In this document: positions 1 to 54,947 of the stretch, one piece after another
Layout of the letters: each line of letters begins with the position of its first letter
How positions within the stretch are numbered: the first letter of the stretch is position 1
NCBI GenBank assembly: GCA_963575745.1
Contig: CAUYUJ010000314.1
Span: 310,001 to 374,000 of the forward strand
DNA length: 64,000 bases
Reading direction: 5' to 3'
Source of the DNA: Prorocentrum cordatum
Lineage: Eukaryota
Notes under the pieces: generated by a model
The model's input: only the letters and a program-made list of their open reading frames with translations
Databases searched by the model: none
What the model was told of the DNA's origin: nothing
Made by a program: the position numbers and the translations under genes

Positions 1-23
1 TCGACTCCCGTCGGGAGGGCCGA

Positions 24-989
24 GTGGTCGAGGGGCCTCCCGACGGAGGGCCCTTGCAGATGAGTCATCGTGCGGCGTTCCCCGACGGTCCGACGGTCTC
101 CCCCGTGGCCGGTGGCCCATGGCCCGTGACCCGTCGTCGTCGTCACCGTCCGTCGGCGTCGCTGCCTCAGCCTCAGCCGTCTGCAGTGCGAAGGTCCAGT
201 GTTTCGGCTGTACTCCTCCCCAGCCTGAGCAGGCGACCCCCCCCCGCCTCGGACTCAGGCGTCGACGCGGCGTCGACGCTCGCCGCGATGGCCGCGATGG
301 CAGCATCGGGGCCGTCGACGACTCATCACATCCAGCTCCAGCTTCGTGTGACCATCAATGGAGATGATGGAGTCGTGGTGGGCGGTGTGACCATCAACAA
401 TGGAGATGGAGTCGTGGTGGGCGGCGGCGGCGACGACCAGCGCGCCCCGGGGGCCGCCGCCGTGTTCCAGCATGCGTTTCATGTGCCAGCTGCTGGTGGT
501 GGTGGCGCTGCGGCCGCAGGCCCTGTGGGCGCCGCTGCAGCTCCGGGTGGCGCAGGGGCCGCACTCCCACTCCCACCCCCAGCACTTCCTGTCGCTGCCG
601 CTGGGCAGCCTTCTCCTGTCGCTGCGCAGCCTGGGCAGCCTGGGCTGCCTCCACCGGCGCCGGCGGGGCAAGCCTTGGAGGTGCCCGAGGGGTCTGAGGC
701 CAACGAATTCGGCTGGCCAGCCACTGCGCCGTGGATCGCACCGCACTTCCGCCGGATCTTGCCCCTCGCGGCTGGCGCGCTCGGGTACCACAGCAGCCAC
801 GTGATGGCCCGCTATCGCAGCGTTGACATCTGCACCGTATGCGGCGGCTTCTCTGAGCGTGTATGTTCCAGGAAGCTCTGCGCGCCCTGTTCAGGGATCC
901 GCAGTGATCACTATGGCAGGCGCAACCTTCTTCACATGCGCGTCGGCCACCACCCCAAAACTAACCGCGATTTTGCGGGCTGCTACTAA
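24..989 (+). mobile_element. 3' end of a non-LTR retrotransposon-like ORF: low-complexity linker plus C-terminal Cys/His zinc-finger
   Basis: The ORF ends YHSSH...DICTVCGGFSERVCSRKLCAPC...MRVGHHP. The same pattern follows the RNase H domain of the LINE remnant at ~18050-18290 (WICLRCGGWSQGRALKLAQPC). The 5' part is probably outside the window. Confidence 0.5.
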
Positions 990-1594
990 CGTGGTGAGGG
1001 CCCGCCACGCGCCGCGCGCTGGAGTAAATGGAGGGAGGAGGGGTGGGGGGAGATGGGGGCGAGGCGATATGATCAGAGATTTTGACGACCGCGACGACGA
1101 CCGTGACGACGACGACGACGCGACGACGACCCGACCCGACTCGCCCTTAATCCTTAGGCCTCATCTGCATTCTGTGCCCTGCAGGACGCCGCCCCCGCGG
1201 CTGCTTCCCACGGTCCGTCGGCCCGATGCCACGCGCGCGCTCCATGCGAGGCCGCGTGGGCTGCAGCATGCGCGCCGTCTCATCCCCCGCCCCGCAGCGC
1301 GCGCCCCCCCCCCCCCACTGGCACCACTGGACGTTTGCGCAAGTGTCGGGCTTATGCCGATCGGATCAACGCCCCATGGCTCCAGGGCCCCCCAGGGCTC
1401 CCCCCCCCCGACTACATGAATTATCCGACGCTGTCCGCCGCGAGGGCGGGGGGGGAGGGGGGGCGCGCTGTAGCTGTTCTCTGTTCTATCGGCTAGCGCA
1501 GTCAGTCGAAACCTTCGGCCTGGCAGCGAATCTCGAAAGCATAACAGATTTATGGGGTTCTGGATCTACTAGGACTCAAAAAATGAGTGTGTTG

Positions 1595-1710
1595 AAGATT
1601 GGGATCTCCTCTTGACGCCCTGAGGGGCGAGGAATTTCTGGCAATCTCTCTTGAGGCCCTGTGGGGAGATAGAATTTCTGGGATCTCCTCTTGAGGCCCT
1701 TAGGGTAGTT
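1595..1710. repeat. Short tandem repeat (ATCTCCTCTTGAGGCCCT-like core, 3 copies)
   Basis: The core recurs at ~1603, ~1644 and ~1683. It resembles the CCTCTTGAGGCC motif of the repeat at 54.2-54.8 kb. Confidence 0.6.
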
Positions 1711-2067
1711 AGAATTTCTTGGTGCCGTTGGGGTCTTGCAAAATCTCTGGGCCCACCCATCAAGAGCTGGTAGGCCATCTGGGGAGAACTCGACAGGCTC
1801 TTGGCGCCCTCGCTCGCTGAAAATGCATTAATCTTCGCATTGCTTCGAGGGAATGGGCGACTTCCGACATCCGTGAGTTCGTCTAGAATTGGTTGCGGCT
1901 ATTTTCGCTCTGCTTCCTATCCGCCCTCTGGACGTTCCATCGGCTACAACGGCCCCTGTTCTTCCATCATTGCCCAATTCCATTCCCACCGCGGCTCCAG
2001 CCCGACCTGCAACAGGCGCGCGAGGTGGAACGGCCAGCCCGCAGCTGAACCAGCCCGCCTGAGTGCG

Positions 2068-5000
2068 ATGAGCGGCTTCGCGGCGCAGCCGTTCAAGGAC
2101 TTCTGGGCCGACAGGGTTTTCCCCCTCATCGAGACTGACTTCAAGCGGCTTCTCAAGACCATTCCGAAGCGCGTCGCCGCGAGGGCCGAGGGGCCGAAGA
2201 GGGAGAAGCCAGACAAGTCGCAGGAGGACCAGTCGAAGAAGATCTCGAAGAAGGACAGCAAGGAGAGAACTCCATTGCAGGAGAAGCTCGCCAGGATCAT
2301 CGAAGAGTGTAACGAGAAGGGCGAGCGCAGGAATGCCTATCTGAACCTGGCGTATACGGCGCCCATCGACAACAGTTTCCTGGAGGAGAATATCTCGGTG
2401 GGCAAGGTGGAGAACGTGGCTGCGGACATGTTCATGGCGAACGTGCCGACGGACGACGCGGCTGCAACAGCGAACGACTCTCTTGAGGGCGCTGGCGACG
2501 TCGAGTGCACAGCCCAGGGTATACCGCAGCGGCGCATCGTGGAGACGCTAAGCCAGGTCAAGGGTGGCAGGCCTTGGAAGATCCCGAAGCAGGTTGAGAA
2601 AGGGTTCGAGATCCCCATCATGATCACCAACGTGAACCAGACCGCTGTGCCCGAGATCGGCAAATTCAAGCGTTTGGGCAGTGACTTCGTGGTCAACGCT
2701 GTCTGGCTGGCCTACTACTGGGCGAAAGAGGAAGGCAACAGGCAGGCCGCACAAGCGGTGGAGGACTTGATTCTGGATTGGCCCCTCGATTTCGCGCTGA
2801 TCCCGGGGCGCGCGGCTGAGGAGATCGAGGAGAACAAGTCCAAGAGGTCTGTCAACCAGAGAGCCCGCCACGAGCGCCTGCGCGCCTGGCTCGGTGTCGA
2901 GAACCAGAACCTCATGCGCATCGTGGCACGTGCGGCGGAAATCTCGGAGAGCGGCGGGCCAGGTGGCGGGAACCCCTCGGCAGAGAAGGTGCAGGCGTGG
3001 TTGGAGAAAAACATACAGGGGGGGAGTTATGAACTGCCCCAGCCTGAGGACCGTCAGGACGCACATGATCAACTGGTTCGCTCTCGAAAAGTGCCCAGGG
3101 GCACTGCTGCTTTTGGATGCCGCCGTGAACCGTTGGGGGCGAGACAATCTGCTGGGCAAGCCCACGCAGCTTGGGTTGACATCGCGAAGACGGGCGCTAC
3201 CTCGCTGGGGCACGTCTTGGAAAGCCTGTTCACGCGGATGTGGCGGAAGAGCGTGAAGGACCCGTACAGCGCCTCCACCATCGGCCAGGTAGTGGCCGAT
3301 ATCTTGTGGGCGAAGAAGTACGTGGCGAACTTTCTGAGACAGCGCCCAGACTTGTTCAAAGGCAGCACTGGCTGCAACAGCACTGAAGCACCAGACACAC
3401 AGGAGAACGTCGCCGAGAGAAAAGTCATGGTCATGGCTAGGCAATACCTCGACTCGCCGCTCAAGTTCTTCGAGAAGACTGAGGGGCCTGACAAGGGCCC
3501 GACCTGGGTGCAGTCGCTGCCGACCGACGCGCTGCGCCTGGCGATGAGACACTTCCTCGAAATCGGCCAGGAATTCTACAAGCAGGAGATCTCTGGCGCC
3601 CTCACCCAGTCGTACGCCGAGCGCTACAACATGGACAAGTTCCACAGGAGCGTGCGAGAGAACAAGAGGTTCTTCGAGAGGTTCCAGATCGCGTACGACT
3701 CCCTCGCGGGAAACCCCCAGGAACCGTCAGAGGAACAGCCTGCAGACAGCGACACGGTCGGTGCTGCAACAGCGGGCGGCGCTGGAACAGCGGAGGCGGC
3801 CTCCGGGGACAAGAAGAAGATCGACGTCTCCCCGAGCGACGTGAATAACTTCAAGGCGCTGTGCGAGCAGCAGTGCTCTACCGTTCTGGATACGCGGGTC
3901 GTCATGATCACGGCGGAGGGCAGCGCCATGGATATCAACGCTTCGGTTACTAAGACACGCCTATACCAGAACCTCACAGAGAATGCATCAGTGATGGGCT
4001 TCTACGATGTCAAGAATGCGAAGTTGTGCTGCGTCTTCGAGGGGCAAGGCCTCACGCGCCGTGAGCCCGCGCTGGACGAGCAGGATTTCACACGCTACCT
4101 GAAGTCCCTGGAACTGCTGATGGTCGGTGGGTGGGACGTGCTGTGGGTGCTGACGGGCCGCGCGCAGTCGAACCTCCCGAAGATCCAGAATATCCTCGTC
4201 GCAAACAAGTTCCGCGCGGTCACATGCCACCTCGCCTACAACACGAAGCAGATGCAGCAGTACGGCCACTTCCAGAGGCAGCGGGGCCTGGCGAACTCGC
4301 GCCCGCACGAGGTCATGTTGCTCTGCTACAAGGGGAGGAAGCCGAAGCAAATGGCCAAGTTCAGGCAGTTCGTGGGCGCGGGCAGCCCCCTCTTCAACGA
4401 AGTGATGAGGAACGTGCCTGTCCTGCCGCAGAAGAGCCACGCCCTCGTGCCCAAGCAGGTTCGGGAGACCAGCTTGGCCAGCATGGTCGGCCAGTGCGTC
4501 ACCGAGGTGGAGGCCGAGGAGCGAGAGAAGCTGGGGTACTGCCACCCTCTCCAGGGGGACGACGAGGGCGCTGATTGTGGCGCCGGGGCGCTCGACGAAG
4601 CTGCAACAGCCGTCCGCCCCGAGAAGGCCCTCGTGACTGCGGCCGTGAAGAAGCGGAGACTCTACCGCCAGCTCACGGGAACGGAGGTGCCGTGGTTCCC
4701 GCACGACAACGACATCGAGCTCCTCAAGGAGCTCTGCCACGAGGCGGGGAAGCCCAGGTGGGTGTACTTCGGCGCGCCTGCGGGCGGCGCAGGCATGCAC
4801 GGCTGCATCGAGAGCGGGTGCAGTGTGTTGGCCTTGACTTTCGACGACCACCACGCGAAGGTGCTCAGGCCGTTTCTCGTGGAGCGTGCTGTCGAGGCCA
4901 TGCTCGGGAGCAGCACCATGGTGTTCCTGAACGAGGACCTGCTTGCACGCTCTGTGCAGTTGCGCCTGACAAAGGAGGACCCGAAGGAGGACCCGAAGGA

Positions 5001-5211
5001 TGGGAAGAAGGAGGACGACAACAAGAAGGAGGGCAAGAAGGAAGACAATACTAAGGACACTAAGGATAATAAGAATAAGGATAATAATGATGACAAGAAG
5101 AAGAACGGTAAGAAGGGTAAGAAGCGCGACGCCGACGCGTCATCGACCTCAGACTCCTGGTCCTCAGACGACCCCTCGGCCTCGAAGAAGAAGAAGTCGA
5201 AGACTTGCTGA
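2068..5211 (+). CDS. Large unknown protein (~1050 aa) with a C-terminal degenerate beta-class N6A/N4C DNA-methyltransferase-like fold and a K/D/E-rich tail
   Basis: Long open frame with strong G/C third-position bias and a likely ATG at 2068. WFPHDNDIELLKELCHEAGKPRWVYFGAPAGGAGMHGCIESGCSVLALTFDDHHAKVL parallels the beta-MTase pattern HP.KP..L...L.....VLDPF.GSG.T.......R..IG.E....Y. HEVMLLCYKG resembles the E.+++F.K strand. There is no DPPY. A pair of compensating frameshifts at ~3020-3170 is likely. Confidence 0.6.
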   Translation: MSGFAAQPFKDFWADRVFPLIETDFKRLLKTIPKRVAARAEGPKREKPDKSQEDQSKKISKKDSKERTPLQEKLARIIEECNEKGERRNAYLNLAYTAPIDNSFLEENISVGKVENVAADMFMANVPTDDAAATANDSLEGAGDVECTAQGIPQRRIVETLSQVKGGRPWKIPKQVEKGFEIPIMITNVNQTAVPEIGKFKRLGSDFVVNAVWLAYYWAKEEGNRQAAQAVEDLILDWPLDFALIPGRAAEEIEENKSKRSVNQRARHERLRAWLGVENQNLMRIVARAAEISESGGPGGGNPSAEKVQAWLEKNIQGGSYELPQPEDRQDAHDQLVRSRKVPRGTAAFGCRREPLGARQSAGQAHAAWVDIAKTGATSLGHVLESLFTRMWRKSVKDPYSASTIGQVVADILWAKKYVANFLRQRPDLFKGSTGCNSTEAPDTQENVAERKVMVMARQYLDSPLKFFEKTEGPDKGPTWVQSLPTDALRLAMRHFLEIGQEFYKQEISGALTQSYAERYNMDKFHRSVRENKRFFERFQIAYDSLAGNPQEPSEEQPADSDTVGAATAGGAGTAEAASGDKKKIDVSPSDVNNFKALCEQQCSTVLDTRVVMITAEGSAMDINASVTKTRLYQNLTENASVMGFYDVKNAKLCCVFEGQGLTRREPALDEQDFTRYLKSLELLMVGGWDVLWVLTGRAQSNLPKIQNILVANKFRAVTCHLAYNTKQMQQYGHFQRQRGLANSRPHEVMLLCYKGRKPKQMAKFRQFVGAGSPLFNEVMRNVPVLPQKSHALVPKQVRETSLASMVGQCVTEVEAEEREKLGYCHPLQGDDEGADCGAGALDEAATAVRPEKALVTAAVKKRRLYRQLTGTEVPWFPHDNDIELLKELCHEAGKPRWVYFGAPAGGAGMHGCIESGCSVLALTFDDHHAKVLRPFLVERAVEAMLGSSTMVFLNEDLLARSVQLRLTKEDPKEDPKDGKKEDDNKKEGKKEDNTKDTKDNKNKDNNDDKKKNGKKGKKRDADASSTSDSWSSDDPSASKKKKSKTC

Positions 5212-5792
5212 AACAGAGCACAGTTTTGAGCACAGGCTGCAACAGAATTCGACAGCCCCGACGCAGGAGCCAGCCCGCACGCTCCTGTTCCTGTGCGTGG
5301 AGCTGCCACTTGTTTGATTTTGGATTGCAACAGTCGCGCGCTGGCGGCGTCGCCTCCGTTCTCGTAATGGGACGCGCGCCACATTCTGCCTTGTGCAGTA
5401 CACGGCGCCTTGCGTACATATAGGAACATAGTCCTCCGTCATCCCTTCGTCGCCATCCGTCGCACTTGGCCCACGGCGCAGGCAAGGCGCAGAGTCAGGA
5501 TGCTTACCTTTCCAAAGGGTACCCTCGTTGCATCCTACGCTTTCCGTTCCGAAGCTGGGGGGCTGGATAAACAACAGATACCATGCCGCCAAGGCCCTTG
5601 CATCCCTACGGCGCTCTGTAGGGGCGGGCCAGGATGGGGATGCAGCAGGGTAGGGAAGACACGGGAAGCAACGCTCCGAGGAGCGGCCGCAGGGGGAGGA
5701 GGAGGACGGAGGAGGGGCCCGCAGGCGTCTCGGTTCACTGAAACTTAGCGGGCCCGCAGGGACGACACTGCCGTCAGCGGGCCTCCGCGGCG

Positions 5793-7036
5793 ATGGCTGC
5801 CTCGGGCGGCAGCGGTCGCGACAGGAACAAGGTTCTCTTCCATAAGTGGGGCTGTTACCTGCAGGGTGACGGGTCGAACAACGACAAGATCAACAAGAAG
5901 CTGAGGGATACCTGCAGCAATAGCATGGCCAGGGTGGCAAAAAAGGGGGTCCGACCGCAAAAGTGACGCTGGGGAAGGTATCGGAGAACAAATGTGTGTT
6001 GACGTGGCCAAAGCCAGTTTCGTATGACACCTGCTCGCGGCTCCTCAAGATTGCGCTGGGCGCCAACGGGAAAGACTATGTGAGCAAGCCTGCAGGGGTG
6101 CCAGGGTGCGCGAAATGTGCTGGAACAGCTGACGCTGCAGAAGATGAGCCAGCTGTCGCCGAGTGCCACGGTGTCGCAGGAGAAACCCTAGAGAACGCGC
6201 TGGGGAAGGTGCTCGTTCCCGCCGCGGACGGGGCAGCGGAGCCTACGCCACCGACAGCTGCTCGTCGCGGGTCTGCTGGTCCGAGAGCGGTGTCCCACGA
6301 CGAGGGTCGTGTGAATCTACTTGCACTGAAGCTCGACGCGGTCGGGCACGCGTACGAAAACAAACAGAAGGGCAAGTGCGAGGACCTGCCGCTCGAGTAC
6401 GACGTGCAGTGGGAAGGAGGGGAGCTCGGTCAGGGCTCTTTCGGCAAGGTCTACTTGGGCACGCGACAGGGCGACAAGACTGGCCTTGCGATCAAGATGC
6501 TGCGGGACGACCCCAGCGATGCGCAGAAGGGGTGCAATGCGGATGCCGTCGGAGGGGCTCTGGATGAGGTCATGCGCCACGGTGCTGTGGGCACGCACCC
6601 GCGTCTCGTTCGCTTACTCGACGTGGGCCTTTTCAGGAGGTTGTGCCCAGGAACTGCAACAGTCCCGAAGAAAGCACACCGAGAACTGCAACAGTCAGTA
6701 CCAAGGATAGATTGGAAATGGACGGAGCACATCGGCCTCGTGCACGAGTTGTTCGAGATCGATGTCCGCCAATTCCTCAAGAAGTCCTCCTTCACGCAGA
6801 CAGGGATGCGCCACGTCCTGAACAGCGTTCTCGAAGGGCTCCAGTACATGCACGACAGGGGCCTCATTCACTGCGACATCAAGCCCGCAAACATCCTGAT
6901 GCGAGGATCGCCGCAGACGCGCGGCTGCTTCGAGAAGCAGGCACTTGTATCACGTGAGCTTGGCGAATGGGATCCCGTCGCGCCGTGCCCAAAGAGCAAG
7001 CTGCAGTTCGACTGGCAGATCCCGAGTTCCTTCGAG
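5793..7036 (+). CDS. Ser/Thr protein kinase, exon 1 (subdomains I-VIb); probable frameshift near 5945
   Basis: Motifs LGQGSFGKVY, AIKM, HPRLVRLLDV and HCDIKPANIL. An ATG at 5793 opens a short frame that shifts at the A6G5 run (~5939-5949) into the 5963 frame. Confidence 0.85.
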
Positions 7037-7040
7037 GCGC

Positions 7041-7335
7041 TCGTCGTCGACGTCGTCGTCGCCGTCGTCGTCGCCGTCGTCGTCGTCGTCCTCCTCCTCC
7101 TCGTCCTCCTCGTCCTCGTCGTCCTCGTCGTCCTCGCCGTCCTCGTCGTCCTCGTCGTCCTCGTCGTCGTCCTCCTCGTCCTCGTCGTCGTCGTCCTCGT
7201 CGTCATCCTCGTCATCCTCGTCGTCCTCGTCGTCGTCCTCCTCGTCCTCGTCGTCGTCGTCCTCGTCGTCCTCGTCATCATCGTCATCCTCGTCATCCTC
7301 GTCGTCGTCGTCGTCATCCTCGTCATCATCGTCGT
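7041..7335. repeat. (GTC/CTC/ATC)n trinucleotide microsatellite within the intron
   Basis: Directly visible. Confidence 0.95.
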
Positions 7336-7370
7336 TCCTTCGACTAAGATCCCGAGTGTCAGGGCTCACA

Positions 7371-7750
7371 TGGAGCTCTAACATAGTATGTTAGAGCTCC
7401 CAGGAGTATGTTAGAGCTCCAAGGGAGCTCTAACATGCCATGTTAGATTTGAGCTCCAGGGAGCTCTAACATGGCACATGCCATGTTAGAGCTCCCAGGG
7501 AGCTCTAACATGCTATGTTAGAGCTCCCATGGAGCTCTAACATGCCATGTTAGAGCTCCAAGGAGCTCCCTGGGAGCTCTAACATGGTATCACGTGCCAT
7601 GTTCGAGCTCCCAGGGAGCTCTAACATGGCATGTTAGAGCTCCCTGGGAGCTCTAACATAGCATGTTCGAGCTCCCTGGGAGCTCTAACATGGTATCACG
7701 TGCCATGTAAGAGCTCCGTGAGAGCTCTAACATACTATGTTAGAGCTCCC
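7371..7750. repeat. Array of palindromic units GAGCTCTAACAT-N-ATGTTAGAGCTC within the intron
   Basis: Alternating 12-bp arms that are exact reverse complements, e.g. 7373-7399. Confidence 0.9.
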
Positions 7751-7777
7751 CTCTCCTCCATTCGCCCCTCTCCGCAG

Positions 7778-8400
7778 GTGGTGCTCGCCGACCTCGGCTG
7801 TGTGCAGATGGCGGATCCCCACGGCAGGTTGAAGAGGAAACTGCGCTACAGCCCGACCTGCGATGACCTCAGAGTATGCACGCCCGCTTACAGAGCGGTA
7901 GGCGTTTTCTTGGGGAACCAGCGCTACTCAGAGGACCTGGACATGTGGTCCATCGGGTGCCTGATGGCCGAGTTGTATACGCGCAAGGTGTCGTTCCAAC
8001 CGCCAGAGCCTTGCGGCGCGCTCGGGCATCATCCAGGGGGGCACCCGAAAGACTTCGTGGTTTTCTGCAGGGAGGTTTTGGGGATCCCAGGCAAGGAGCC
8101 AGGGTCGGGAGACTTCTACAATTACGAGGGCCAGGAACCCGCCCCGTGGCTGGACAACCTGCCTTTCTTTGAGAAGTGGTTCAAGCGGTCGGGCGGGGAT
8201 TGGCTAAAGGCTGAAACAGCGAAGGCACTCGACGGCCGAGGGCGCTGGCCCGTTGACGAACTTGCAGACTGCCCCCCAGACTTGTTGAAGGCCGCCGGGA
8301 GCTGCCTGCTTTGGCGCCCTGGCGCCAGAGCGACAATCAGTAGTCTAAGGGCTCGTCGCTTCCTGCAGCCGGCTGGCGCCCAGCTCGTCGCGCGCATCTC
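7778..8400 (+). CDS. Ser/Thr protein kinase, exon 2 (subdomains VII-XI)
   Basis: Motifs VVLADLG, CTPAYRA, YSEDLDMWSIGCLMAEL and CLLWRPGARAT, giving a CMGC-like appearance. Confidence 0.85.
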
Positions 8401-9376
8401 ATGGCGCAGGGGAAAAACGGCACGGGCGCGATAGCGGAGGCCGGGCTGGACCCAGGCTTGCTCCGCTTCTTGCAGAGAGACCCGTGCTGGCAGATCTTGG
8501 CCGAGGAGCGCCTGGACACGGGGGCAACCGTCTCCAAATGCGTCCGAGGCGACGAGGCGGCAAAGGGCTTGAAAACAGAGGTCGCAGGCGTCGTGGACGA
8601 CGAAAGCCCCCCGAAGTGCCGCAGCCTCAACAAGGGCGGGAATTTGCAGATCACCCCCTCGCCCCACATGGCCGCCTTCGTGCGAGCGCTGCGGAAGAAG
8701 ATGCGCCCGTGGCTGCAACAGCTGGGAGACAAAATGCGCGAGGCTGTCAAAGCCGACGGCATGCCACCTGCCATCGTCGAGCAGAACGGAAAGCCCATCA
8801 TGACAGAGCACTTCGCCGACAACGCGTTCGCGTACGCATCGATCCAGCTCATGCAACCAGGCGCACGGGGCGATGGTTGGCACACAGATGGCGGATGCTC
8901 CCTGTTGCACGCGGCCGTGACGGTTTTCGGGGCGCGCTCCGTGCAAGTGAGGATCCCAGGGGTCCTGGGAGCACATGATGGGGCGTCACCCTCGAGCACA
9001 GCCTCCTGCGGAAGGGTCGTCACCCTCGAGCAAAAGCATGGGTCCTTCTACATGGGCACCCTGTCCTCCCTCGAGCACAACGTGCATCACCACGCCTCAG
9101 GACTGTTTCGCCGCCCACCACGAGCTGCAACAGCGCGTAGACGACAGCAGGCTGCAGATCGCCGTCGTGGTCCGCTCCGACGTCTTTCGGGAGTTCAGGG
9201 CGCGCAGGATCGACGCCACGCCTGGCCCGAAGGAGTTCTTCAACGTCGTGAACCACGTCGTGGCCGATCACCTGGCGCGGGTCCCCGTGGCGTTGCCCGA
9301 CCTCGCGGAGGTGCTTGACGAAATGCGGTGGCCCGGCCTCACGGAGGTGCTTGACGAAATGGGGCTTTCCGATTAG
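8401..9376 (+). CDS. 2-oxoglutarate/Fe(II) dioxygenase domain, AlkB-like; frameshift near 9100; probably fused to the kinase
   Basis: ASIQLM...GWHTDGG gives the HxD motif. LEQKHGSFYMG...EHNVHH gives the distal His. After a frameshift, QIAVVVR resembles the AlkB terminal strand RxxxxxR. The frame overlaps the end of the kinase frame. Confidence 0.7.
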
Positions 9377-9404
9377 TACTCAGCACGGCCCGCGCAGCCC
9401 GAAA

Positions 9405-11038
9405 TCATCATCTTCATCGCCATCATCGTCGCAATCATCGGCTTCATCGCCATCGTCATCTTCATCATCACCATCATCAGCACCAACATGTTCACGCCGC
9501 CATCATCGTCATGCGGGTCTTGATTTAATCATCATCATCACTACGAGATGATGACGATGACGAGAAGATTATGATGGATATTATGATGATGACGATGGTG
9601 AGGAGATGGTGATGATGATGGCGATGACGCGGACGATGATGAATATCATGACGACGATGATGACGATGCTGTTGGAAATGATGCAAAAACAGGTTGAGTC
9701 GGTTGAGTCCGAAAACTTCGCCTTAAACCAAGCCAGGCAAGGGTATGAGATGAGGAGTATGAGGATGAGAACGATACTGATGATGCTGATGATGACGAGG
9801 ATGAGGATGACGATGAGGATGAGTTGGGGGGTTATGACGATGCTGTTGTTGATGATGACGTTGATGTTGGTGATGAGGATGAGGATGGGGATGATGACGG
9901 CGAGGATGAGGATAAGCACGCGGATTTGGTTGTGTATGTGCATGTGGAGGTGGATGATCACGCTGATGATGATGATGCTGCTGATGATGATGATGCTGAT
10001 GACGATGATGATGATGGTTATGACGATGCTGATGTTGCTTATGATGATGATGCTGCCTCTGATGATGATGACGATGATGGTGATGATGCTGATGATTATG
10101 GTGTTGGTGAATATGACGATGATGATGGTGATGATGCTGATGATGATGGTGGTGGTGAGTATGACGATGACGATGTTGATGATGATGGTGGTGATGATGT
10201 TGATGCTGCTGATGATCGTGTTCGTTATGATCATCATTGGACATAACAGTATTAGGATGAGTAGTAGTTTTCTCACCATTAGAAACTCTTAGTATTATGT
10301 TGATGGTGTGTGCAAGAGTGGGTGGTCGGATGATGTGGATGTGCATGATGAGGAGGAATCATGATGCTGCTGATGATACGGAGGATGAGGATGATGATGA
10401 GGATGAGGAGGAGGATGCGGATGAGGATGAGGATTATTATGATGATGTTGGTACTGGTGTTGATGCTGATGCGCTGATGACCGTGATGATGCTGATGATG
10501 ATGCGGCCTCTGATAATGATGATGATGATGGTGATGATGCTGATAATGATGGTGGTGGTGAATATGACGATGATGATGATGGTGATGATGCTGATGATGA
10601 TGGTGGTGGTGAATATGACGATGATGATGATGGTGATGATGCTGATGATGATGGTGATGGTGAATATGACGATGACGATGTTGATGATGATGGTGGTGAT
10701 GATGTTGATGCTGCTGATGATTGTGTTTATTATGATCATCATTGGACATAACAGTATTAGGATGAGTAGTAGTTTTCTTACCATTAGAAACTCTTAGTAT
10801 TCTGTTGATGGTGTAGGCAAGAGTGGGTGATCGGATGATGTGGATGCGCATGATGAGGATGAAACGTGATGCTGCTGATGATACGGAGGATGAGGATGAG
10901 GATGAGGAGGAGGATGCGGATGATCATGAGGATTATTATGATGATGTTGATACTGATGTTGATGCTGATGCGCTGATGACCGTGATGATGCTGCGAATGA
11001 TGATGATGATGAGGAGGAGGAGGAGGAGGAGAAGGAGC

Positions 11039-11131
<93 letters not shown>

Positions 11132-11410
11132 GTGATTGGATTGATGCTGATGATGATCATGCTGCTGCTGATGATGAAGAAGAAGATAATGATGATGCTG
11201 ATGATGAGGAGGATGAGCATGATAATGATAATGATAATGAGGATGAGGATGAAGATGAGGATGAAGTGAGGATGACGATGGCGATGACGTGGATGAGAAG
11301 GAGCAGGAGGAGGAGGAGGAGGAGGAGGAGGAGGAGGAGGAGGAGGAGGAAAGGGAAAGGGAAAGGAGAAGGGAAAGGGACAGGGAAAGGGAAAGGGAAA
11401 GGGAAAGGGA
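9405..11410. repeat. Degenerate (GAT)n satellite with a ~504-bp higher-order duplication, ending in (GAG)n and (GGGAAA)n
   Basis: The block ATTGGACATAACAGTATTAGGATGAGTAGTAG...AGAAACTCTTAGTATT occurs at ~10236 and ~10741. Confidence 0.9.
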
Positions 11411-11414
11411 AAGG

Positions 11415-12040
11415 GCCTCTTTGGCCGTCTGGGGGCTCTTCTGGACCGTCTTGTGGCCCTCTTGGCCTTGTGGTGGATGCCTGAGGGCCGTGGTGGGGCC
11501 GTCTTGGCGCCATCTTGGGCAGTCCAAGAAAGGCCTTTTGATGCCATCATGGGTCCTACGGGAGGCCCTCTTGAGCCGTCTTGGTGCCGTCTTTGATGCC
11601 TTTTGGGCCTTCATGGGGTCATCTTGGGTGATCTTTGGACCTCGTGGGCGCCTATTGGACCGTCTTCGGCCTATATTGGAGGATTCTTGCGCCGTCTTGA
11701 GCCGACGGAAGCCCAGAAAAGGTGATAACGAGCACATCCTTCAAATCCAGGGAAATCAATGATGTTGGCTTCTCCGGGCCCTGTTGGAGGTCCTCCTGTG
11801 GCCCTTCGAGCCTTCTTGGAGGCATTTGGGGTTGTCTTGAGGCCATATTGGGCCATCTGCCTTGGGGTCATCTTGGGCCGTCTTCGAGGCATCTTGAGCC
11901 ATCTTGGTGTCCTTGGTTGCCTGCATGGGTCGTCTTGGAAGCTCGGGACGCAGATCCATCGTTTTCGCAAGAGTGATCGTGGCCTCGGGAGCGCGGATCC
12001 AGTGTTTTTGTTTTCTACCGGGGATCGTGGCCTCGGGAGG
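11415..12040. repeat. Dispersed CTTGG/GGCC-rich repeat family, copy 1
   Basis: 11690-12040 is colinear with and similar to 14720-15058. Related sequence lies at 54200-54810. Confidence 0.8.
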
Positions 12041-13179
12041 GGGAGGATGCACGCGACGGATGCTGGTAGAGGGGGGGGGAATCCTTCTCTGGAGTGCAGA
12101 AACCCTACTGGGCAGCACCTGGCATTCGAACACGCCTACACCGTGCGGGCGCGGTGGCGGGCCGCTCGCGTCTGCTGTACACTCCGCCTCCAGTCCGAGA
12201 GCTCCGACGCGGTGATCTCTCCACAGCGTCGACCCCCCAGAGGTCCGCGAGGGCCCCCGGGAGGCCGCAGGCGGCTGAAAACCTCGCGCCGTGATTTGCC
12301 CACGACGGGAGGAGGAGGAGGAGGAGGAGGAGGAGGAGGAGGAGGAGGAGGAGGGGAGGAGGAGAGGAGGAGGAGAGGAGGAGGAGGAGGAGGGAGAGAG
12401 GGAGGAGGGAGGAGGAGAGGAGGAGGGAGGAGGGAGGAGGAGAGGGAGGAGGAGGAGAGGAGGAGGAGGGAGGGAGGAGGAGGGAGGAGGAGGCCAGAGC
12501 TCGTGCTTCCCGTCCTGGGCGCTGGGCGCGCGACCGGGGGCCCACGCGGGCGCTCCCGCGTGGGACCTCCCGCCCGCCCCGCGGGGCCCCGTGCCGCGCC
12601 GCAGGACAGCCGCGAGTTTGACGCCAAGGGCAGCAATTTGGCAGCGCCCCGCCCTCGGGGGCGGCCAGGAGGGGGGTGCTGAGCAGGGAGGTGGGTGTCG
12701 TGGCGGGGCCATGATACAGTCGAGGCTGATTAGCGGGTCGGCCCTACCAAAGCAAGAGAGAGACTTCTGTCCTGTGTTTTTCGCGGCCCGTGCCCTCTGC
12801 ATCCCGTGGCGCTGTGGCCCTCGAAAGGGCCTTGTGCACCCTCGCGTGGCCTCTCCAGTCAACCGTGACTGTACGGTCGGGCCGAGGTTTAAGGTCGAGG
12901 TCGGGTCGGCGAGGGTACCCCGATGTTCTTCGTGTTTGCTGGATGCTCTTGGCTCGGGGCACCCTGGGGGAGGGTACCTTCGAGTGATCTCGTGGCGTGG
13001 GGTGCTTTGGCTGGCAGAGGGTCTCGTGCTCCTGCTCGCCTGCCGCAGGCCCGACCGCAGTGCGGTCCCTGCCCCCTCCCCCCCGGGCCGCGCACGTGTC
13101 TCGTGCCATGGCCTGCGACCCCCCGTCTGTGGCCGGCCCCCTCCCGGGCGCCCCCGCTCCCCGTGCCCTCCTCTGGATC

Positions 13180-13380
13180 TGGGCCTCCCGGATGGGCTCC
13201 GAGCAGAGGGGGGTCGGAGGATGGCGCCGCATCGCCGGTGCATCGGCGATGCGGCTCGATGTGGAGCCCGATCCCCTTCGCGTCGACGTCGAACATGCAT
13301 CGCGCCGACGTCGCCGATGCATCACCAATGCGTCACCGATGACTCGGCGATGCATCCGCGATGCGACGCGACCCTCTGGC
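13180..13380. repeat. CGATGCATCG-rich dispersed repeat
   Basis: Its reverse complement resembles 63850-63960 (GCGATGCGGCGC.ATCCTCCGACCCC...CTCGGA.CCCATC.GGGAGGCC). Confidence 0.7.
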
Positions 13381-13829
13381 ACCATCCACGCGGACCCCAC
13401 TCACAAGGCCTCTAAGGCTCTAAGGATGCGGAGGAGGATGGGGGCGGAGAGGCGACCTCCGCCTTCCCCGTCGTGGAGGCGTCACGACGGGAGACCTCTG
13501 GTCGTTTCCGGCTTCTGCCGTCCCTCGCCAGGCCCCCGGGGCCGTCAAAAAATGACCCAGGACGAGGAAACGCTCCCACGGAAGGAGTCCAGACCTCCGG
13601 GGGTCGACGTTCGGTAAAAGCGACGTCGGAGTTCTGAGGAGGCGGACGGGGAGAAAGGCAATGGTAAGGATGTGTGGAGAAGGACGATGAGGTGGCGGAT
13701 GGGGACGGGGGCGTGAAGGAGGGAGGGAGGGGAAGGAGAGAGAAGGCAGGAGGGAGACGGAGCAGAAGGAAGAGGGTTGAAGGGAGAAGGAGGAAAATGA
13801 GGTGGAGGAGGAGCGAGGGTTGGAGATCC

Positions 13830-13952
13830 GTGATGGTGCTCGATGATGGTGGTGGTGATGATGATGTTGATGACGATGGTGGTGATTGCGATGTTGATGA
13901 TCATGCTGATGCTGATGCTGATGCTGATGCTGATGCTGATGCTGATGCTGCT

Positions 13953-13998
<46 letters not shown>

Positions 13999-14102
13999 CT
14001 GATGATTAATATGGTGATGGTGATGCATATTATATGATGACGATGATGACGATGATGATGCTGATGATGGTGATGCCGATGCTGCTGCTGATGATTATTA
14101 TT

Positions 14103-14239: not shown

Positions 14240-15083
14240 CCTCTTTCGTCTTGGCATTCGAGGAGTCCTAATGGAACTTGTGTGGGCCGTCTTCCACTGT
14301 CTTGCCCTCCCGTGAGGCTGCATTGGGGGTCCCTCGGGGCCCTCCTGTGCCGTCCAGGAGTCCTCTTTGCGCCATCTCGGTGCTCTCGTTGGCCGTCGTG
14401 GCGTTCTCTTGGCCGTCCGGTGGGTGGCTGGGTGGTGCCCCCGCGGGGCCCGTCTTGGGCTGCCGAACGGCCTTTTGTAAGACAGTCTTCGGTCCCCACG
14501 GGAGGCCCGTTTGGACAGACTTGGGGTCGTCTTGAATGGGCCGTCTTGGGCCGTCTTGGGCGATAGTTTCGTAGATCGCAGGCACTGCGATCTGCGAATG
14601 AAGGTCTCGTCGGTTCCCAGGCACTGCGCAGGCCTGGCACTATCCCAGGCTCTGCGAAACTATCGCGGCACTATCGTGGTACTTCCTGGGCCGTCTTGGG
14701 GCCATCGCAGAGGCCTCTTGGGCCGCCTTGTGTTGACGGAAGCCCGAAAAGGCGAGGGTGCGAAACTCATCCAAAACCCAAGGGACAGCATTGATGTTGG
14801 TTTCTCCGGGCTTTGCTGGAGGTCCTCCTGTGGCCCATCTAAGCCTTCATGGAGGCATCCTTGGCTTTCAAGAGGCCATATTGGGCTGCCTTGGGGCCAT
14901 CTTGGGCCGCCTTCGAGGCATCTTGAGCCATCTTGGTATCCTTGGTTGCCTGCATGGGCTGTCTTGGAAGCTCGGGACACAGATCCATCGTTTTGTAAAA
15001 GGGTTCGTGGCCTCGGGAGCGCGGATCCATTGTTTTCTACTAGGGATCGTGGCTTCGCGAGAGAGAGAGAGAGAGAGAGAGAG
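14240..15083. repeat. Dispersed CTTGG/GGCC-rich repeat family, copy 2, ending in (GA)n
   Basis: Homologous to 11415-12040. Confidence 0.75.
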
Positions 15084-29234: not shown

Positions 29235-30232
29235 GCACGCACGCACGCACGCACACAGGCACACACGCACGCACACACGCGCACACGCGCACACGCACAC
29301 GCACACGCACACACGCACGCACGCACGCACGCACGCGCGCACGCACACGCACACACGCACGCACGCACGCACACGCGCACTCAAACGCACACGCACGCAC
29401 ACACATACATACACACCCGCACGCACACACGCACACACACGCACACACGCACACGCTCACATGCACACACGCACCCATGCACACACGCACACGCGCACAC
29501 GCACACGCAAACGCACACGCACACGCACACGCACACGCACACGCGTACGCACACACACACACACACGCACAGGCGAACACGCGCACACGCGATCAATCGC
29601 ACACGCGCACACGCGCACACGCGCACACACAGCACACACGCACACACGCACACACGCGCACACACACGCACACACACACACACACGCACACACACACACA
29701 CACGCACGCACACACACACACACGCACACGCACACGCACACGCACACGCACACGCACACGCACGCGCACACGCACACGCGCACACGCGCACACGCGCACA
29801 CGCGCACACGCGCACACACACACACACACGCACACGCACGCGCACACGCACACGCACACGCACACGCACACGCACACACAGCACACGCACGCAGACACAC
29901 GCACACGCACATGCACACGCACACGCACACGCACACGCACACGCACACACGCACACCCACACACCCACACGCACACACGCACACACGCACACGCACACGC
30001 ACCACACACACGCACACGCACACGCACACGCACACGCACACGCACACACGCACACACGCGCACTCACGCACACACACACACACACGCACACACGCACACA
30101 CGCACACATGCACACACGCACACACAGCACACACGCACACATGCACACACACGCACACACGCACACACGCACACACACGCAACACACACGCACATGCACA
30201 CGCACATGCACACGCACACGCACACGCACAAG

Positions 30233-30263
<31 letters not shown>

Positions 30264-30300
30264 ATGCGCACACGCACACACACATGCACACACACGCACA
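29235..30300. repeat. ~1.07-kb alternating purine-pyrimidine (CA/CG; CACACG) tract
   Basis: Directly visible. Confidence 0.95.
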
Positions 30301-42409: not shown

Positions 42410-44400
42410 CGAAACGTCTCAGGTAGAACGGGCCAAACCATCTCGCGCTTAACATCTTCGAGCTTCGCATTGCGAGGATGGCTCAAGCGAAACGGGCCAG
42501 ACCACCTCGCGAGGGACATCTTGGAGCTCAGTATTTGAAGGATGTCTCAAACGAAACGGGCCGGACAACCTCTTGCACACGTTCTGACAAGTCCACGTCA
42601 CATTCGTTTCCCGTTAGGTCCTCTCCTGCAACTCCTTTCCTTCTCCCTCCTCCTCCTCCTTCTCCTCCTCCTCCTCCTCCCCCTCCTCCTGCCTGCTCCC
42701 TCATCCACATCCTCCTCCTCTTCCTCTTCCTCCTTCTCCCTTCCATCTCCTCCTCCTTCTCCTTCTCCCCCTCCTCTTCCTCCACCTCCTCTTCATCCCG
42801 AACGGCATCTCGGAGCCCAGAGTTGCGAGGATGCCTCCAGCGTAACGGGCTGGACCACCTCGCGCGCAGCATGTCGGAGCTCAGAGTTGCGACGATGTCT
42901 CGGGCGAAACGTGCTGCGAGGAAGTCTCAGGCGAAACGGGCCGGACCACCTCGAGCGCGGCGTCTCAGAGCTCCGAGTTGCGGGGGCCTCCTGGGGCCTC
43001 CTGGGCCTTCTGGGGACCTCCTGTGGCGTCCTCCTGGGCCTCCTGTGGCCTCCTGGACCTCACCTGGGGCTTCCTGAAGCCTCTTGGGGCTCCCAGGGGG
43101 GGATATCTAACATGTGGTGGCCGTCTGGGCTGGGCGGGCCACAAGAGCAGGAAAAATCAACGAATCGACACCGGATGTGGATTAACTTGACACGTTCTGA
43201 TAGGGGGCCTCCTGGGGCCTCCTGGGAGCCTCCTGGGAGTCTCCTGGGGACCCCTGGGGCCTGTCCTGGGCGTCCTTCGGCCTCTCCTGGGCGTCCTGTC
43301 TTGGGAGCCTCCTGGGGAGCTCTCTGGGGCAGGGTCCCAGGAGGGATATGTAACATGTGGTCTTCTGGGCCCCCAGGCTGGACCACCTCTTGCGCGGCAT
43401 CTGGGAGCTCAGAGTTGCGAATATGTCTTGTGCGTAACGGGCCGGACCACCTTGCGCACGGCATCTCAGAGCTCAGAGTTGCGAGGATGTCTCAGGCGAG
43501 ACGGGCCGGACCACCTCGCGCAGGGCATCTCAGAGCTCAGAGTTGCGAGGATGTCTCAGGTGAAACGGGCTGGACCACGTCGCGCGCGGCATCTGGGAGC
43601 TCAGAGTTGCGAGAATCTCTTGTGCGAAACGGGCCGGACCACCTTGCGCACGGCATCTCAGAGCTCAGAGTTGCGAGGATGTCTCAGGCGAGACGGGCCG
43701 GACCACCTCGCGCAGCATCAGAGAGCGCAGAGTTGCGAGGACGTCTCAGGTGAAACGGGCCGGACCACCTCTCACGCGGCATCTCGGAAAGCAAAAGTGC
43801 GAGGATATCTCAAGTGAAACGGGCCGGACCACCTCTTGGGCGGCATCTCGGGGCTCAGAGTTTGGAGGATGTCTCAAGCGAAACGGGCCGGACCACCTCT
43901 CGCGCAGCATCAGAGAGCGCAGAGTTGCGAGGGTGTCTCAGGCAAAACGGGCCGGATCACCTCGCGCAGGGCATCTCAGAGCTCAGAGTTGTGAGGATGT
44001 CTCAGGTGAAACGGGCTGGACCACGTCGCGCGCGGCATCTGGGAGCTCAGAGTTGCGAGGATGTCTCAGGTGAAATGGGCTGAACCACCTCTTGCGCGGC
44101 AGCTCAGAGCTCAGAGTTTCGAGGATGTCTCAGGCGAAACGGGCCAGACCACCTTGCGTGCGGCATCTGGGAGCTCAGAGTTTGGAGGATGTCTCAGGCG
44201 AAACGGGCCCGACCACCTCTCGCGCGGCATCTGGGAGCTCAGAGTTTCGAGGACGTCTTAGGCGAAACGGGCCGGACCACCTCTCACGCGGCATCTGGGA
44301 ACTCAGAGTTTGGAGGACGTCTCAAGCGAAACGCCCCATCCCGGACAGCTCAGAAACGAGAGTTGCGAGGATGTCCCAGGCGAAACGGCCCGGACCACCA
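42410..44400 (+). repeat. ~59-60-bp tandem repeat (CTCAGAGTTGCGAGGATGTCTCAGGCGAAACGGGCCGGACCACCTCGCGC..GGCATCT..GAG), interrupted by CCT and CCTGGG tracts
   Basis: About 17 contiguous units at 43378-44400, plus units at 42410-42580 and 42800-42985. Confidence 0.95.
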
Positions 44401-54194: not shown

Positions 54195-54947
54195 CTCCTA
54201 GGATGTCCCTTGGAAATTGTTTTGGAGTCCTCTTGGAACGCCTGGGGGGTTCTTGGATGCCTCGGGGATCCTCTTGAGGCCTCTTGGGGGTCTAGGGAGC
54301 CTCTTGAGGGCCTTTTGGGGACCTCTTGGGGCCTCCTGGGCGCCTCTTGAGGCCCTCTTGGGGCGCTCTTGGGGCGCTCTTGGGAGCCTTGGGAGCGCTC
54401 TTGGGGCCATCTTGGAGGTGATCGATCAAAGGAAGGGGGTCCCCCAATTAGCGTCCCCCCTCGGGAGCCTCTAAAATCGCCTCTTGGACCCCTCTTGGGA
54501 CGCTCTTGGAGCGCTCTTGGGCGCTCTTAGGGCCGTCTTGGGGCCATCTTGGGCCCCTCTTGGGGCCCTCTTGGGCCCTCTTGGAACCATCTTGAGGCCT
54601 CGAGTGGCCATCGGAAGCGAAAAGGCTCTTGGGGGGCCTCCTTGGGAGGCTACGTGGCCAATTGGAGTCGTCTGGGGGCGGTCTTGGGACCTTTTGGAGC
54701 ATCCTCAGGGCCATCTTGAGGCGTCTTCGGCTGTCTTGAGCCATCTTGGAGGTCATCTTGGGCTCTCCGAGGCCCTCTTGGAGCCATCTTGGGCCATCTT
54801 GGACGCTCCCAACTACCAGCGACCCCCCCCGTCCAGGTCCAGGGGAGGGGGTTAGGGGGAGGGGTAAACCCCTCCCCGAAGGGGAAGAAGGGAAGATGGA
54901 AGAGGAAACTCCCTGAACCACCTACGCCCAGAGGGCTGGTGGGATTG
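54195..54947. repeat. CTCTTGGG-rich dispersed repeat with terminal short hairpins
   Basis: Dense (C)TCTTGG motifs. It ends with the hairpin GGGGAGGGG-TAAA-CCCCTCCCC (~54856-54877) followed by GCCC-AGA-GGGC. Confidence 0.7.

Follow-up and report, generated by a model that had tools for sequence, protein, structure and literature searches.

Messenger RNAs (mRNAs) that carry several copies of one short cis-acting element are a known kind of regulatory target. The closest described cases are the Smaug elements, the zip-codes of ASH1 and the Roquin decay elements, for which a ROQ-domain reader is known from animals. Here, we analyzed 64,000 nucleotides (nt) of Prorocentrum cordatum DNA (GenBank assembly GCA_963575745.1, contig CAUYUJ010000314.1, positions 310,001 to 374,000), in the following called the window, in which the 9-mer CTGCAACAG occurs ten times within a block of 7 kb. 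The 9-mer is the core of an 11-nt element, G-CUG-NAN-CAG-C, in which two arms of four self-complementary positions flank three central bases, the middle one being A. The element belongs to none of the three described classes and has unusual features; it is most likely an undescribed signal that is read in the mRNAs of uncultured marine eukaryotes.

The Roquin constitutive decay elements (CDEs) resemble the element described here in being small hairpins with a three-base loop and a purine in its middle. Among CDE loops, YAU is the most effective, and the third loop base of conserved elements is preferably U (PMC6294493, PMC5603727). Most lineages studied here use CAU, UAU, AAU or GAU loops, and the NAN loop falls within the CDE loop rule YRN, the first loop base being Y in about half of our copies. 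Several copies per message cooperate in CDEs, as we propose by analogy for our element. CDE stems comprise 6-8 bp, are essentially sequence-free and are weakened by G.U pairs (PMC6294493), whereas here 4 bp are supported, the arms are sequence-fixed and G.U is the commonest variant. Moreover, CDEs are placed in 3' untranslated regions (UTRs), whereas most copies of our element lie in coding sequence.

In the Smaug system, a single RNA-binding protein regulates a group of messages through many Smaug recognition elements (SREs) in the open reading frame (ORF) and the UTRs, eight of them in the Hsp83 ORF (PMC4053848). The likeness lies in the many copies of one short stem-loop element in ORF and UTRs, but the SRE bound by Smaug/Vts1 is a CNGG(N0-3) loop on a non-specific stem (PMC4053848), whereas our element combines a specific stem with a NAN loop, which has three bases in all 150 aligned instances. 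In the ASH1 message, the elements E1, E2A and E2B are found in the coding region and E3 directly past the stop codon, and they are bound by She2p-She3p (PMC4615550). The element described here is similar in layout only, with several copies in linkers of the ORF and one 1-60 nt past the stop. The ASH1 elements mediate transport of their mRNA. They are without a common sequence (PMC4615550), whereas here one 11-nt sequence is repeated almost exactly.

Results

Ten copies of the motif in one block of the window

All ten exact copies of CTGCAACAG are on the + strand. No exact copy was found outside 2007-9133 on either strand of the 64,000 bases, so that the other 57 kb are empty, and the reverse complement CTGTTGCAG does not occur in the window. 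Several variants, most of them with one mismatch, are found on the same strand and within the same block. The copies, the variants and the two genes that carry them are:

2007-2015, + strand: exact copy, cCTGCAACAGg with outer pair C-G, in the 5' leader, 61 nt before the gene-1 ATG at 2068
2045-2053, + strand: variant CTGAACCAG with loop AAC, 23 nt before the gene-1 ATG
2068-5211, + strand: gene 1, intronless ORF of 1047 amino acids, orphan family, lysine-rich tail
2462-2470, + strand: exact copy, gCTGCAACAGc, read as AATA, in a variable linker at residue ~132
3372-3380, + strand: exact copy, gCTGCAACAGc, read as CNS, residue ~435
3764-3772, + strand: exact copy, gCTGCAACAGc, read as AATA, residue ~566
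3782, + strand: one-mismatch variant CTGGAACAG, 18 nt beyond the copy at 3764
4601-4609, + strand: exact copy, gCTGCAACAGc, read as AATA, residue ~845
5208-5216, + strand: one-mismatch variant CTGAAACAG (gCTGAAACAGa), which includes the gene-1 stop codon TGA
5237-5245, + strand: exact copy, gCTGCAACAGa, 26 nt past the gene-1 stop
5325-5333, + strand: one-mismatch variant TTGCAACAG (aTTGCAACAGt) with U.G replacing C-G, in the 3' trailer; the related loci L001 and L024 also have this variant past the stop
5925-9376 (approximate), + strand: gene 2, CMGC-like kinase plus a C-terminal domain with HxD...H...R residues
6120-6128, + strand: one-mismatch variant CTGGAACAG, read as AGTA, gene 2
6654-6662, + strand: exact copy, aCTGCAACAGt with outer pair A-T, read as TATV, in an insert of the kinase N-lobe, gene 2
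6686-6694, + strand: exact copy, aCTGCAACAGt, read as LQQ, 32 nt after the copy at 6654
8211-8219, + strand: one-mismatch variant CTGAAACAG (gCTGAAACAGc), gene 2
8713-8721, + strand: exact copy, gCTGCAACAGc, read as LQQ, inside the conserved gene-2 peptide WRPWLQQLG
9125-9133, + strand: exact copy, gCTGCAACAGc, read as LQQ, in a variable stretch of gene 2 between the second His and the RLQIAV strand

Dinucleotide shuffles of the window contained 0.74 copies of CTGCAACAG on average and four at most, and none of 100 reached ten. In the coding DNA (5,733 bases), the eight copies compare with a mean of 0.42 and a maximum of three in synonymous-codon shuffles, none of 2000 of which reached eight, and with a mean of 0.03 when the order of the codons was shuffled. 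The AATA sites all use identical codons. An earlier reading of the sequence alone (the sequence-only reading) had reported ten same-strand copies, near-matches at 3782, 5325 and 6120, and sites in all three codon phases as well as in non-coding DNA, and had concluded that a strand-polar constraint acts at the nucleic-acid level. Each of these copies and near-matches was found, the description of the phases was correct, and the codon-preserving shuffles agree with the conclusion, which is strengthened by the same strand, positions and clade-specific variants in the related loci described below. In a limited library of literature, CTGCAACAG, GCTGCAACAGC and CTGCATCAG with their RNA forms, as well as CTGNNNCAG-type strings, matched unrelated papers only.

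Conserved copies in related loci

A scan with the gene-1 alignment yielded 45 metagenome loci with gene-1 homologues, all of which were oriented with the gene on the + strand. Thirteen of them contain CTGCAACAG itself, with 55 sense copies in total, and antisense copies are absent from all 45. The remaining 32 loci carry sister words, namely CTGCATCAG (42 sense, 3 antisense; 17 loci), CTGAATCAG (24 sense, 5 antisense; 15 loci) and CTGTATCAG (18 sense, 0 antisense; 14 loci). When the 45 loci were pooled with the window block, CTG(CAA/CAT/AAT/TAT)CAG was counted 151 times in sense and 8 times in antisense. Of the 251 matches to CTG-NNN-CAG in the 45 loci, we counted 192 with A and 19 with T at the centre, and the neighbouring bases extend the word to 11 nt, G-CTG-NAN-CAG-C.

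Each copy was mapped onto the window protein, and the loci with a copy were counted among the loci that cover the site:

Residues 120-146 (window copy 2462): 10 of 16 loci
Residues 222-232: 12 of 19 loci
Residues 420-440 (window copy 3372): 7 of 7 loci in the group of the window, 0 of 12 elsewhere
Residues 546-556: 0 of 7 loci in the group of the window, 11 of 19 elsewhere
Residues 560-578 (window copy 3764): 19 of 25 loci
Residues 818-852 (window copy 4601): 25 of 26 loci

Homologues with orthologous copies share 35-58% protein identity. The sites at residues 845 and 566 are variable protein linkers, and the 15 nt on each side of them are only 32-42% identical between loci. Placement relative to the gene recurs as well, with one or two copies 17-70 nt upstream of the ATG in related loci and, in most loci that cover the region, a copy 1-60 nt past the stop or overlapping it; the window, L001 and L024 all have ATTGCAACAGT in the 3' trailer. 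In L002, L017 and L010, three to five copies are grouped behind the upstream gene, and in L017 an ORF still further upstream has a copy two bases past its stop. Because of these copies at upstream genes, the motif-bearing row is longer than two genes in the relatives.

Among 122 coding copies in gene-1 homologues, 82 are read as Ala-x-x-Ala, 30 as Leu-x-Gln and 10 as Cys-Asn-Ser. As a proxy, such peptides were counted in independent proteins from ENA, JGI and Logan, whose DNA was not seen. In 177 gene-1 relatives, A[AEVG]TA occurs 91 times and A[AEVG]SA 130 times compared with 11.5 and 12.7 after shuffling, and in 43 gene-2 relatives the counts are 91 and 14 compared with 4.6 and 4.4; overall, this amounts to 8-20 times the shuffled expectation in both families. 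Gene-2 homologues have AVTA, AATA or AETA at the place that matches the window copy at 9125.

Turnover was observed at residue ~567, where L002 has two copies, L003 has CTGCAGCAG and L017 has CCGCAGCAG. In addition, L002 contains tandem 22-nt repeats with the motif at 1419-1483. At 560-1120, L040 has a degenerate version of the gene-1 3' end, in which 56 nt are deleted relative to L024; the deletion is not located at a motif, and the sequence beyond this copy is unrelated and still has three CAA-type copies. Domain shuffling or recombination at motif sites was considered for L040 and L024 and rejected; no rearranged variant joined at a motif was found.

A clade-specific loop base

A quick maximum-likelihood tree was calculated for 27 of 46 rows, namely those with more than 200 filled columns over residues 601-960, and the other 19 were left out. 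The seven rows dominated by CAA loops (window, L001, L002, L003, L005, L013 and L039) form one clade with an approximate likelihood-ratio support (SH-aLRT) of 99. L004, which has TAT loops, adjoins this clade, and elsewhere in the tree the loops are of NAT type. Over all site bins together, we counted A as the third loop base in 34 of 37 cases in the group of the window and T in 66 of 84 in the rest. The same loop change is seen at shared sites, with TAT to CAA or TAA at residue 227, AAT to CAA at residue 566 and CAT to CAA at residue 845. The change of a single letter of a dispersed signal at many sites is as expected from co-evolution with one reader.

Covariation of the outer pair

In 150 distinct 21-mers the outer pair is G-C in 109, G-U in 13, A-U in 10, U-A in 2, C-G in 1 and another combination in 15. 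Double changes at this pair number 13 compared with 2.5 in shuffles, and none of 500 shuffles reached 13. Where the left outer base is not G, the right base is complementary in 24 of 37 cases. Allowing for orthology, we count about 11 independent complementary double changes, which include the transversions T..A and C..G at two sites each. Moreover, on the sense strand the changes that keep a G.U pair outnumber their mirror images (17 TTG..CAG, 2 CTG..CAA), an asymmetry that fits pairing on this strand.

The two genes of the block

What the sequence-only reading called a cassette consists of two eukaryotic genes, one coding for an orphan protein and the other for a CMGC-like kinase fused to a dioxygenase-like domain. 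L003 and L006 have the same order, with the kinase downstream of gene 1. Gene 1 had no match in Pfam, NCBIfam or the sequences of the PDB; a Pfam search at E up to 5 gave nothing credible and a PDB profile nothing below E 0.26. A word-indexed search found 32 homologues of near length, and a profile search against 1.84 billion protein representatives found 1097 matches at E up to 0.001. Nine family clusters that were looked up have sources in ENA, JGI and Logan only and none is informatively named, and fourteen longer relatives contain no Pfam domain. The methyltransferase fold that had been assigned to this protein is thus left without a match in Pfam, NCBIfam and PDB sequences. The only hint of such a domain is a match of 0.83 in a protein atlas to a cluster in which 39% of the members have N6_N4_Mtase. 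We read the C-terminal segment RWVYFG-PAGGAG...SVLAL..D, which is glycine-rich and Rossmann-like, as possibly resembling a nucleotide-binding beta-alpha-beta unit. Six loci with NAT loops (L006, L010, L020, L025, L027 and L028) share an intron of 145-284 nt at residue 661/662, and gene 1 is intronless in the lineage of the window.

The kinase domain of gene 2 is nearest to CDK, MAPK and DYRK kinases and is split by a GT..AG intron at 6954-7777 packed with 32-nt palindromic repeats. The ORF at 8401-9318 represents the C-terminal domain; it matches 43 longer proteins of 432-612 amino acids, 41 of which also contain Pkinase. Among the best 60 matches of a PDB profile with gene 2 only kinases were found, and no nuclease match follows the kinase. 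Nineteen homologues of the C-terminal domain keep GWHTDGG, EHNV(R)HH and RLQIAV.IRSD, which may represent the signature of a 2-oxoglutarate (2OG)-Fe(II) dioxygenase. In a protein-language-model search, the named clusters nearest to this domain were AlkB-type (PF13532), in 27 of 30 matches with scores of 0.93-0.94. This identity remains a lead, as Pfam gave no match at E up to 10 for 19 members and hhalign a probability of 0.1% against E. coli AlkB.

Gene 2 changes frame three times without a visible intron, at 5925-5951, 8401-8416 and ~9098, and at least two of these changes are at homopolymer runs. Contigs of three sequencing runs lack 2 bases at 5939, and with 2 bases fewer the ATG at 5925 would be in frame. 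The frame changes are probably indel errors or strain differences and not signs of a pseudogene. Between 7373 and 7750, the kinase intron consists of tandem 32-nt perfect-palindrome units of the CATGTTAGAGCTCCCTGGGAGCTCTAACATG type with inverted arms of up to 95 nt. Words of these units (ACATGTTAGA and similar) recur 14-16 times in two related metagenome loci, and the repeat may be similar to miniature inverted-repeat transposable elements or to introners.

The block itself was examined for signs of mobility. No long direct or inverted repeats flank it, no terminal repeats were found, and no recombinase, transposase or methyltransferase domain was detected in the block or the related loci. The contig depth over the block is like that of the flanks, and contigs of four DNA sequencing runs, compared with positions 1-14000, match pieces of the block at ~90-99% identity. 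A mobile element was therefore rejected by the missing flanking repeats and the flank-like depth. When viral contigs were scanned with the gene-1 alignment, none of 52 pattern matches proved to be a relative. Scans of viral contigs for two motif copies 8-38 nt apart returned 38 and 105 stretches, of which the 30 densest and three from giant-virus bins are regular tandem arrays that we take as unrelated. With no relatives in viral contigs, a viral origin was rejected as well. Of the suggestion that the motif marks the extent of an element, the marking of one gene block within the window holds, but the block shows no sign of a mobile element or virus. Similarly, there is no basis for a packaging signal, since terminal repeats and viral relatives are missing and the depth is like that of the flanks.

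Contigs of three runs join 1117 to 9647 and thereby skip the block. On one side of this joint there are only 23 letters, and they lie in (GAC)n and (GAT)n runs; therefore it is not read as an allele without the block and is probably a repeat artefact. A fragment of the dinoflagellate spliced leader, searched as a short motif, was absent from the 45 loci and the window.

Discussion

A protein-stabilised RNA hairpin fits the observations on the motif best. The inferred introns contain no copy in 2,122 nt, compared with 46 in 22,630 coding nt (4.3 expected, P ~0.013), a comparison weakened by approximate boundaries and by the relatedness of the loci. From this absence, together with the placement of copies in the 5' leader, in linkers and past the stop and with the variants of G.U type, we infer that the signal acts in mRNA rather than in DNA. 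The covarying outer pair likewise favours a reading on the single-stranded sense strand. A conserved pair, or a short row, of adjacent genes would carry the element sense-wise in their messages, and it would be read there as a small stem-loop, or as one induced by the bound protein. Its reader would be a dedicated factor specific for both sequence and shape, and the several copies in leader, linkers and post-stop region of each message would place the genes under one post-transcriptional control of stability, translation or localisation. The specificity of the reader for the third loop base would have changed once, being U in most lineages and A in that of the window, and the copies would have followed. 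That a dedicated factor binds the 11-nt stem-loop in the mRNAs of this gene row and that the copies jointly control stability, translation or location has, in our estimation, about an even chance of being correct.

Several results weigh against this explanation. The hairpin alone reaches only -2.2 kcal/mol, and in a context of 91 nt it forms with p>0.5 at just 3 of the 10 window copies. A native context that favours the fold was considered and rejected (0.341 with native and 0.354 with shuffled flanks, n=170, p=0.61). Covariation is found at one pair only. The three inner pairs are sequence-fixed without covariation, which is partly imposed by how the instances were picked; in the stems of protein-bound RNA such fixation is unusual, whereas for DNA sites it is typical. 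One position further out, pairing is at chance (48.7% paired compared with 44.2% in shuffles, 49 of 500 of which reach the observed value), and as many instances are orthologous copies, the independent covariation events are fewer than the counts. Besides, eight copies are in reverse orientation, and since all motif-bearing genes that we saw lie on one strand, their sense is inseparable from another polar property of the DNA.

Fixed arms round a varying centre, as in the sites of dimeric DNA-binding proteins and recombinase cores, a single orientation over 7 kb and an RNA fold that is weak and not favoured by its context also suit a site in DNA. Here, GCTG/CAGC arms round an asymmetric 3-bp centre would be bound as a duplex or as an extruded hairpin of the non-template strand, and the binder would mark, modify or orient the block, for example as a base modifier at the central A:T or through a polar recombination or replication signal. 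AlkB-type enzymes act on nucleic-acid bases, and the HxD...H...R residues of gene 2 with their AlkB-type lead would be compatible with such a modifier, although neither Pfam nor hhalign confirmed this lead. The grammar of arms and asymmetric spacer is shared with recombinase core sites, but the arms comprise only 4 bp, known recombinase sites are far longer, and the block and the related flanks contain no recombinase, transposase or methyltransferase domain. Covariation of the outer pair and the excess of G..T over A..C are unexpected for two independently read half-sites, and neither the empty introns nor the copies at transcript landmarks before the ATG and past the stop speak for DNA, so that we regard a DNA-level site as unlikely. 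The bacterial Chi, KOPS and uptake sequences are short, strand-biased, over-represented words that occur in any phase, are lineage-specific and extend chromosome-wide. The motif is likewise short, strand-biased, over-represented, independent of phase and different between lineages, but it is confined to 7 kb of the 64-kb window and to particular gene families, with its positions kept in orthologues. The comparison fails because the other 57 kb of the window contain no copy. At the scale of the window, the Chi-like or uptake-like signal proposed in the sequence-only reading is therefore unsupported, as such signals are genome-wide and the motif occurs only in particular genes (two or more).

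IRE1 splice sites are paired stem-loops with 7-base loops CNGNNGN that are read by a kinase-RNase. In our loci, the loops have 3 bases, and the domain after the kinase is dioxygenase-like and without a nuclease match. A parallel for the reading of a modification is provided by the METTL16 hairpins in the 3' UTR of MAT2A. The two genes could form a self-addressed module in which the loop adenine is the substrate, gene 1 the writer and the dioxygenase-like domain of gene 2 an eraser under control of the kinase, so that the messages would regulate themselves. The excess of A at the motif centre, the presence of the motif with both gene families across deep divergence, the dioxygenase-like residues with their AlkB-type lead and the possible nucleotide-binding unit of gene 1 would agree with this, but Pfam, NCBIfam, PDB profiles and hhalign gave no methyltransferase or AlkB family match, and upstream genes of other families in L002, L017 and L010 also bear the motif, so that the targets extend beyond the two enzymes. 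Such a module seems improbable to us, and the same low expectation applies to its extension, a self-contained marking system of marine protists in which the orphan protein and the kinase-dioxygenase would recognise the GCUG-NAN-CAGC hairpins of their own and their neighbours' messages and write or erase a mark on the loop adenine, while the enzymes and their preference for U or A as third loop base would evolve together. A functionless by-product, left by a local process of mutation, repair or conversion or by an ancient repeat, could account for the turnover among close relatives at residue ~567 and for the motif in the tandem repeats of L002. It is very improbable in view of positions kept at 35-58% protein identity while the flanks at two sites are at 32-42%, the strand ratio of 151 to 8, the clade-wide change of one loop base at many sites and the empty remainder of the window. 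Selection on the peptides AATA, CNS and LQQ, which the copy inside the conserved WRPWLQQLG might suggest, is scarcely credible: three phases are used, some copies are non-coding, the codons are identical at every AATA site, and peptide-level selection is contradicted by the synonymous shuffles as well as by the mixed phases.

If the element is indeed read in mRNA as a stem-loop, it would form a compact 11-nt cis-code with a single recognisable sequence, which very divergent uncultured marine eukaryotes have kept at matching places in UTRs and coding sequence. The recognition letter that changed once at many sites would then be a rare natural case of co-evolution between a cis-element and its reader. 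The motif links two large gene families without annotation and offers an experimental handle, with a bait RNA (GCUGCAACAGC), natural loop-swap controls and synonymous knock-outs. For annotation, the A-x-T-A and A-x-S-A tetrapeptides in linkers are to be taken as footprints of a nucleotide signal and not as protein motifs. Should the modification module prove true, for which we see little prospect, it would supply a natural portable pair of a reader or writer and its tag.

Other features of the window

The window is eukaryote-like, with 145 rows of tandem repeats and few recognisable genes. The only recognisable gene besides the two described above is an SF1 helicase (AAA_11 and AAA_12) in several frames at 45170-50441 on the + strand. 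Long imperfect trinucleotide arrays are found at 9400-11450 and at many other places, including (GAT)n of ~1.5 kb, (GGA)n and (GTG)n. A (CACGCA)n array is located at 29235-30300, and a 64-nt unit is repeated 15 times at 43376-44333. Dispersed repeats of the CCTCTTG(A/G)GGCC type, with units of 10-11 and 21 nt, occur at 1600-1719, 11836-11883, 14874-14929 and 54251-54802, and thus also just upstream of gene 1.

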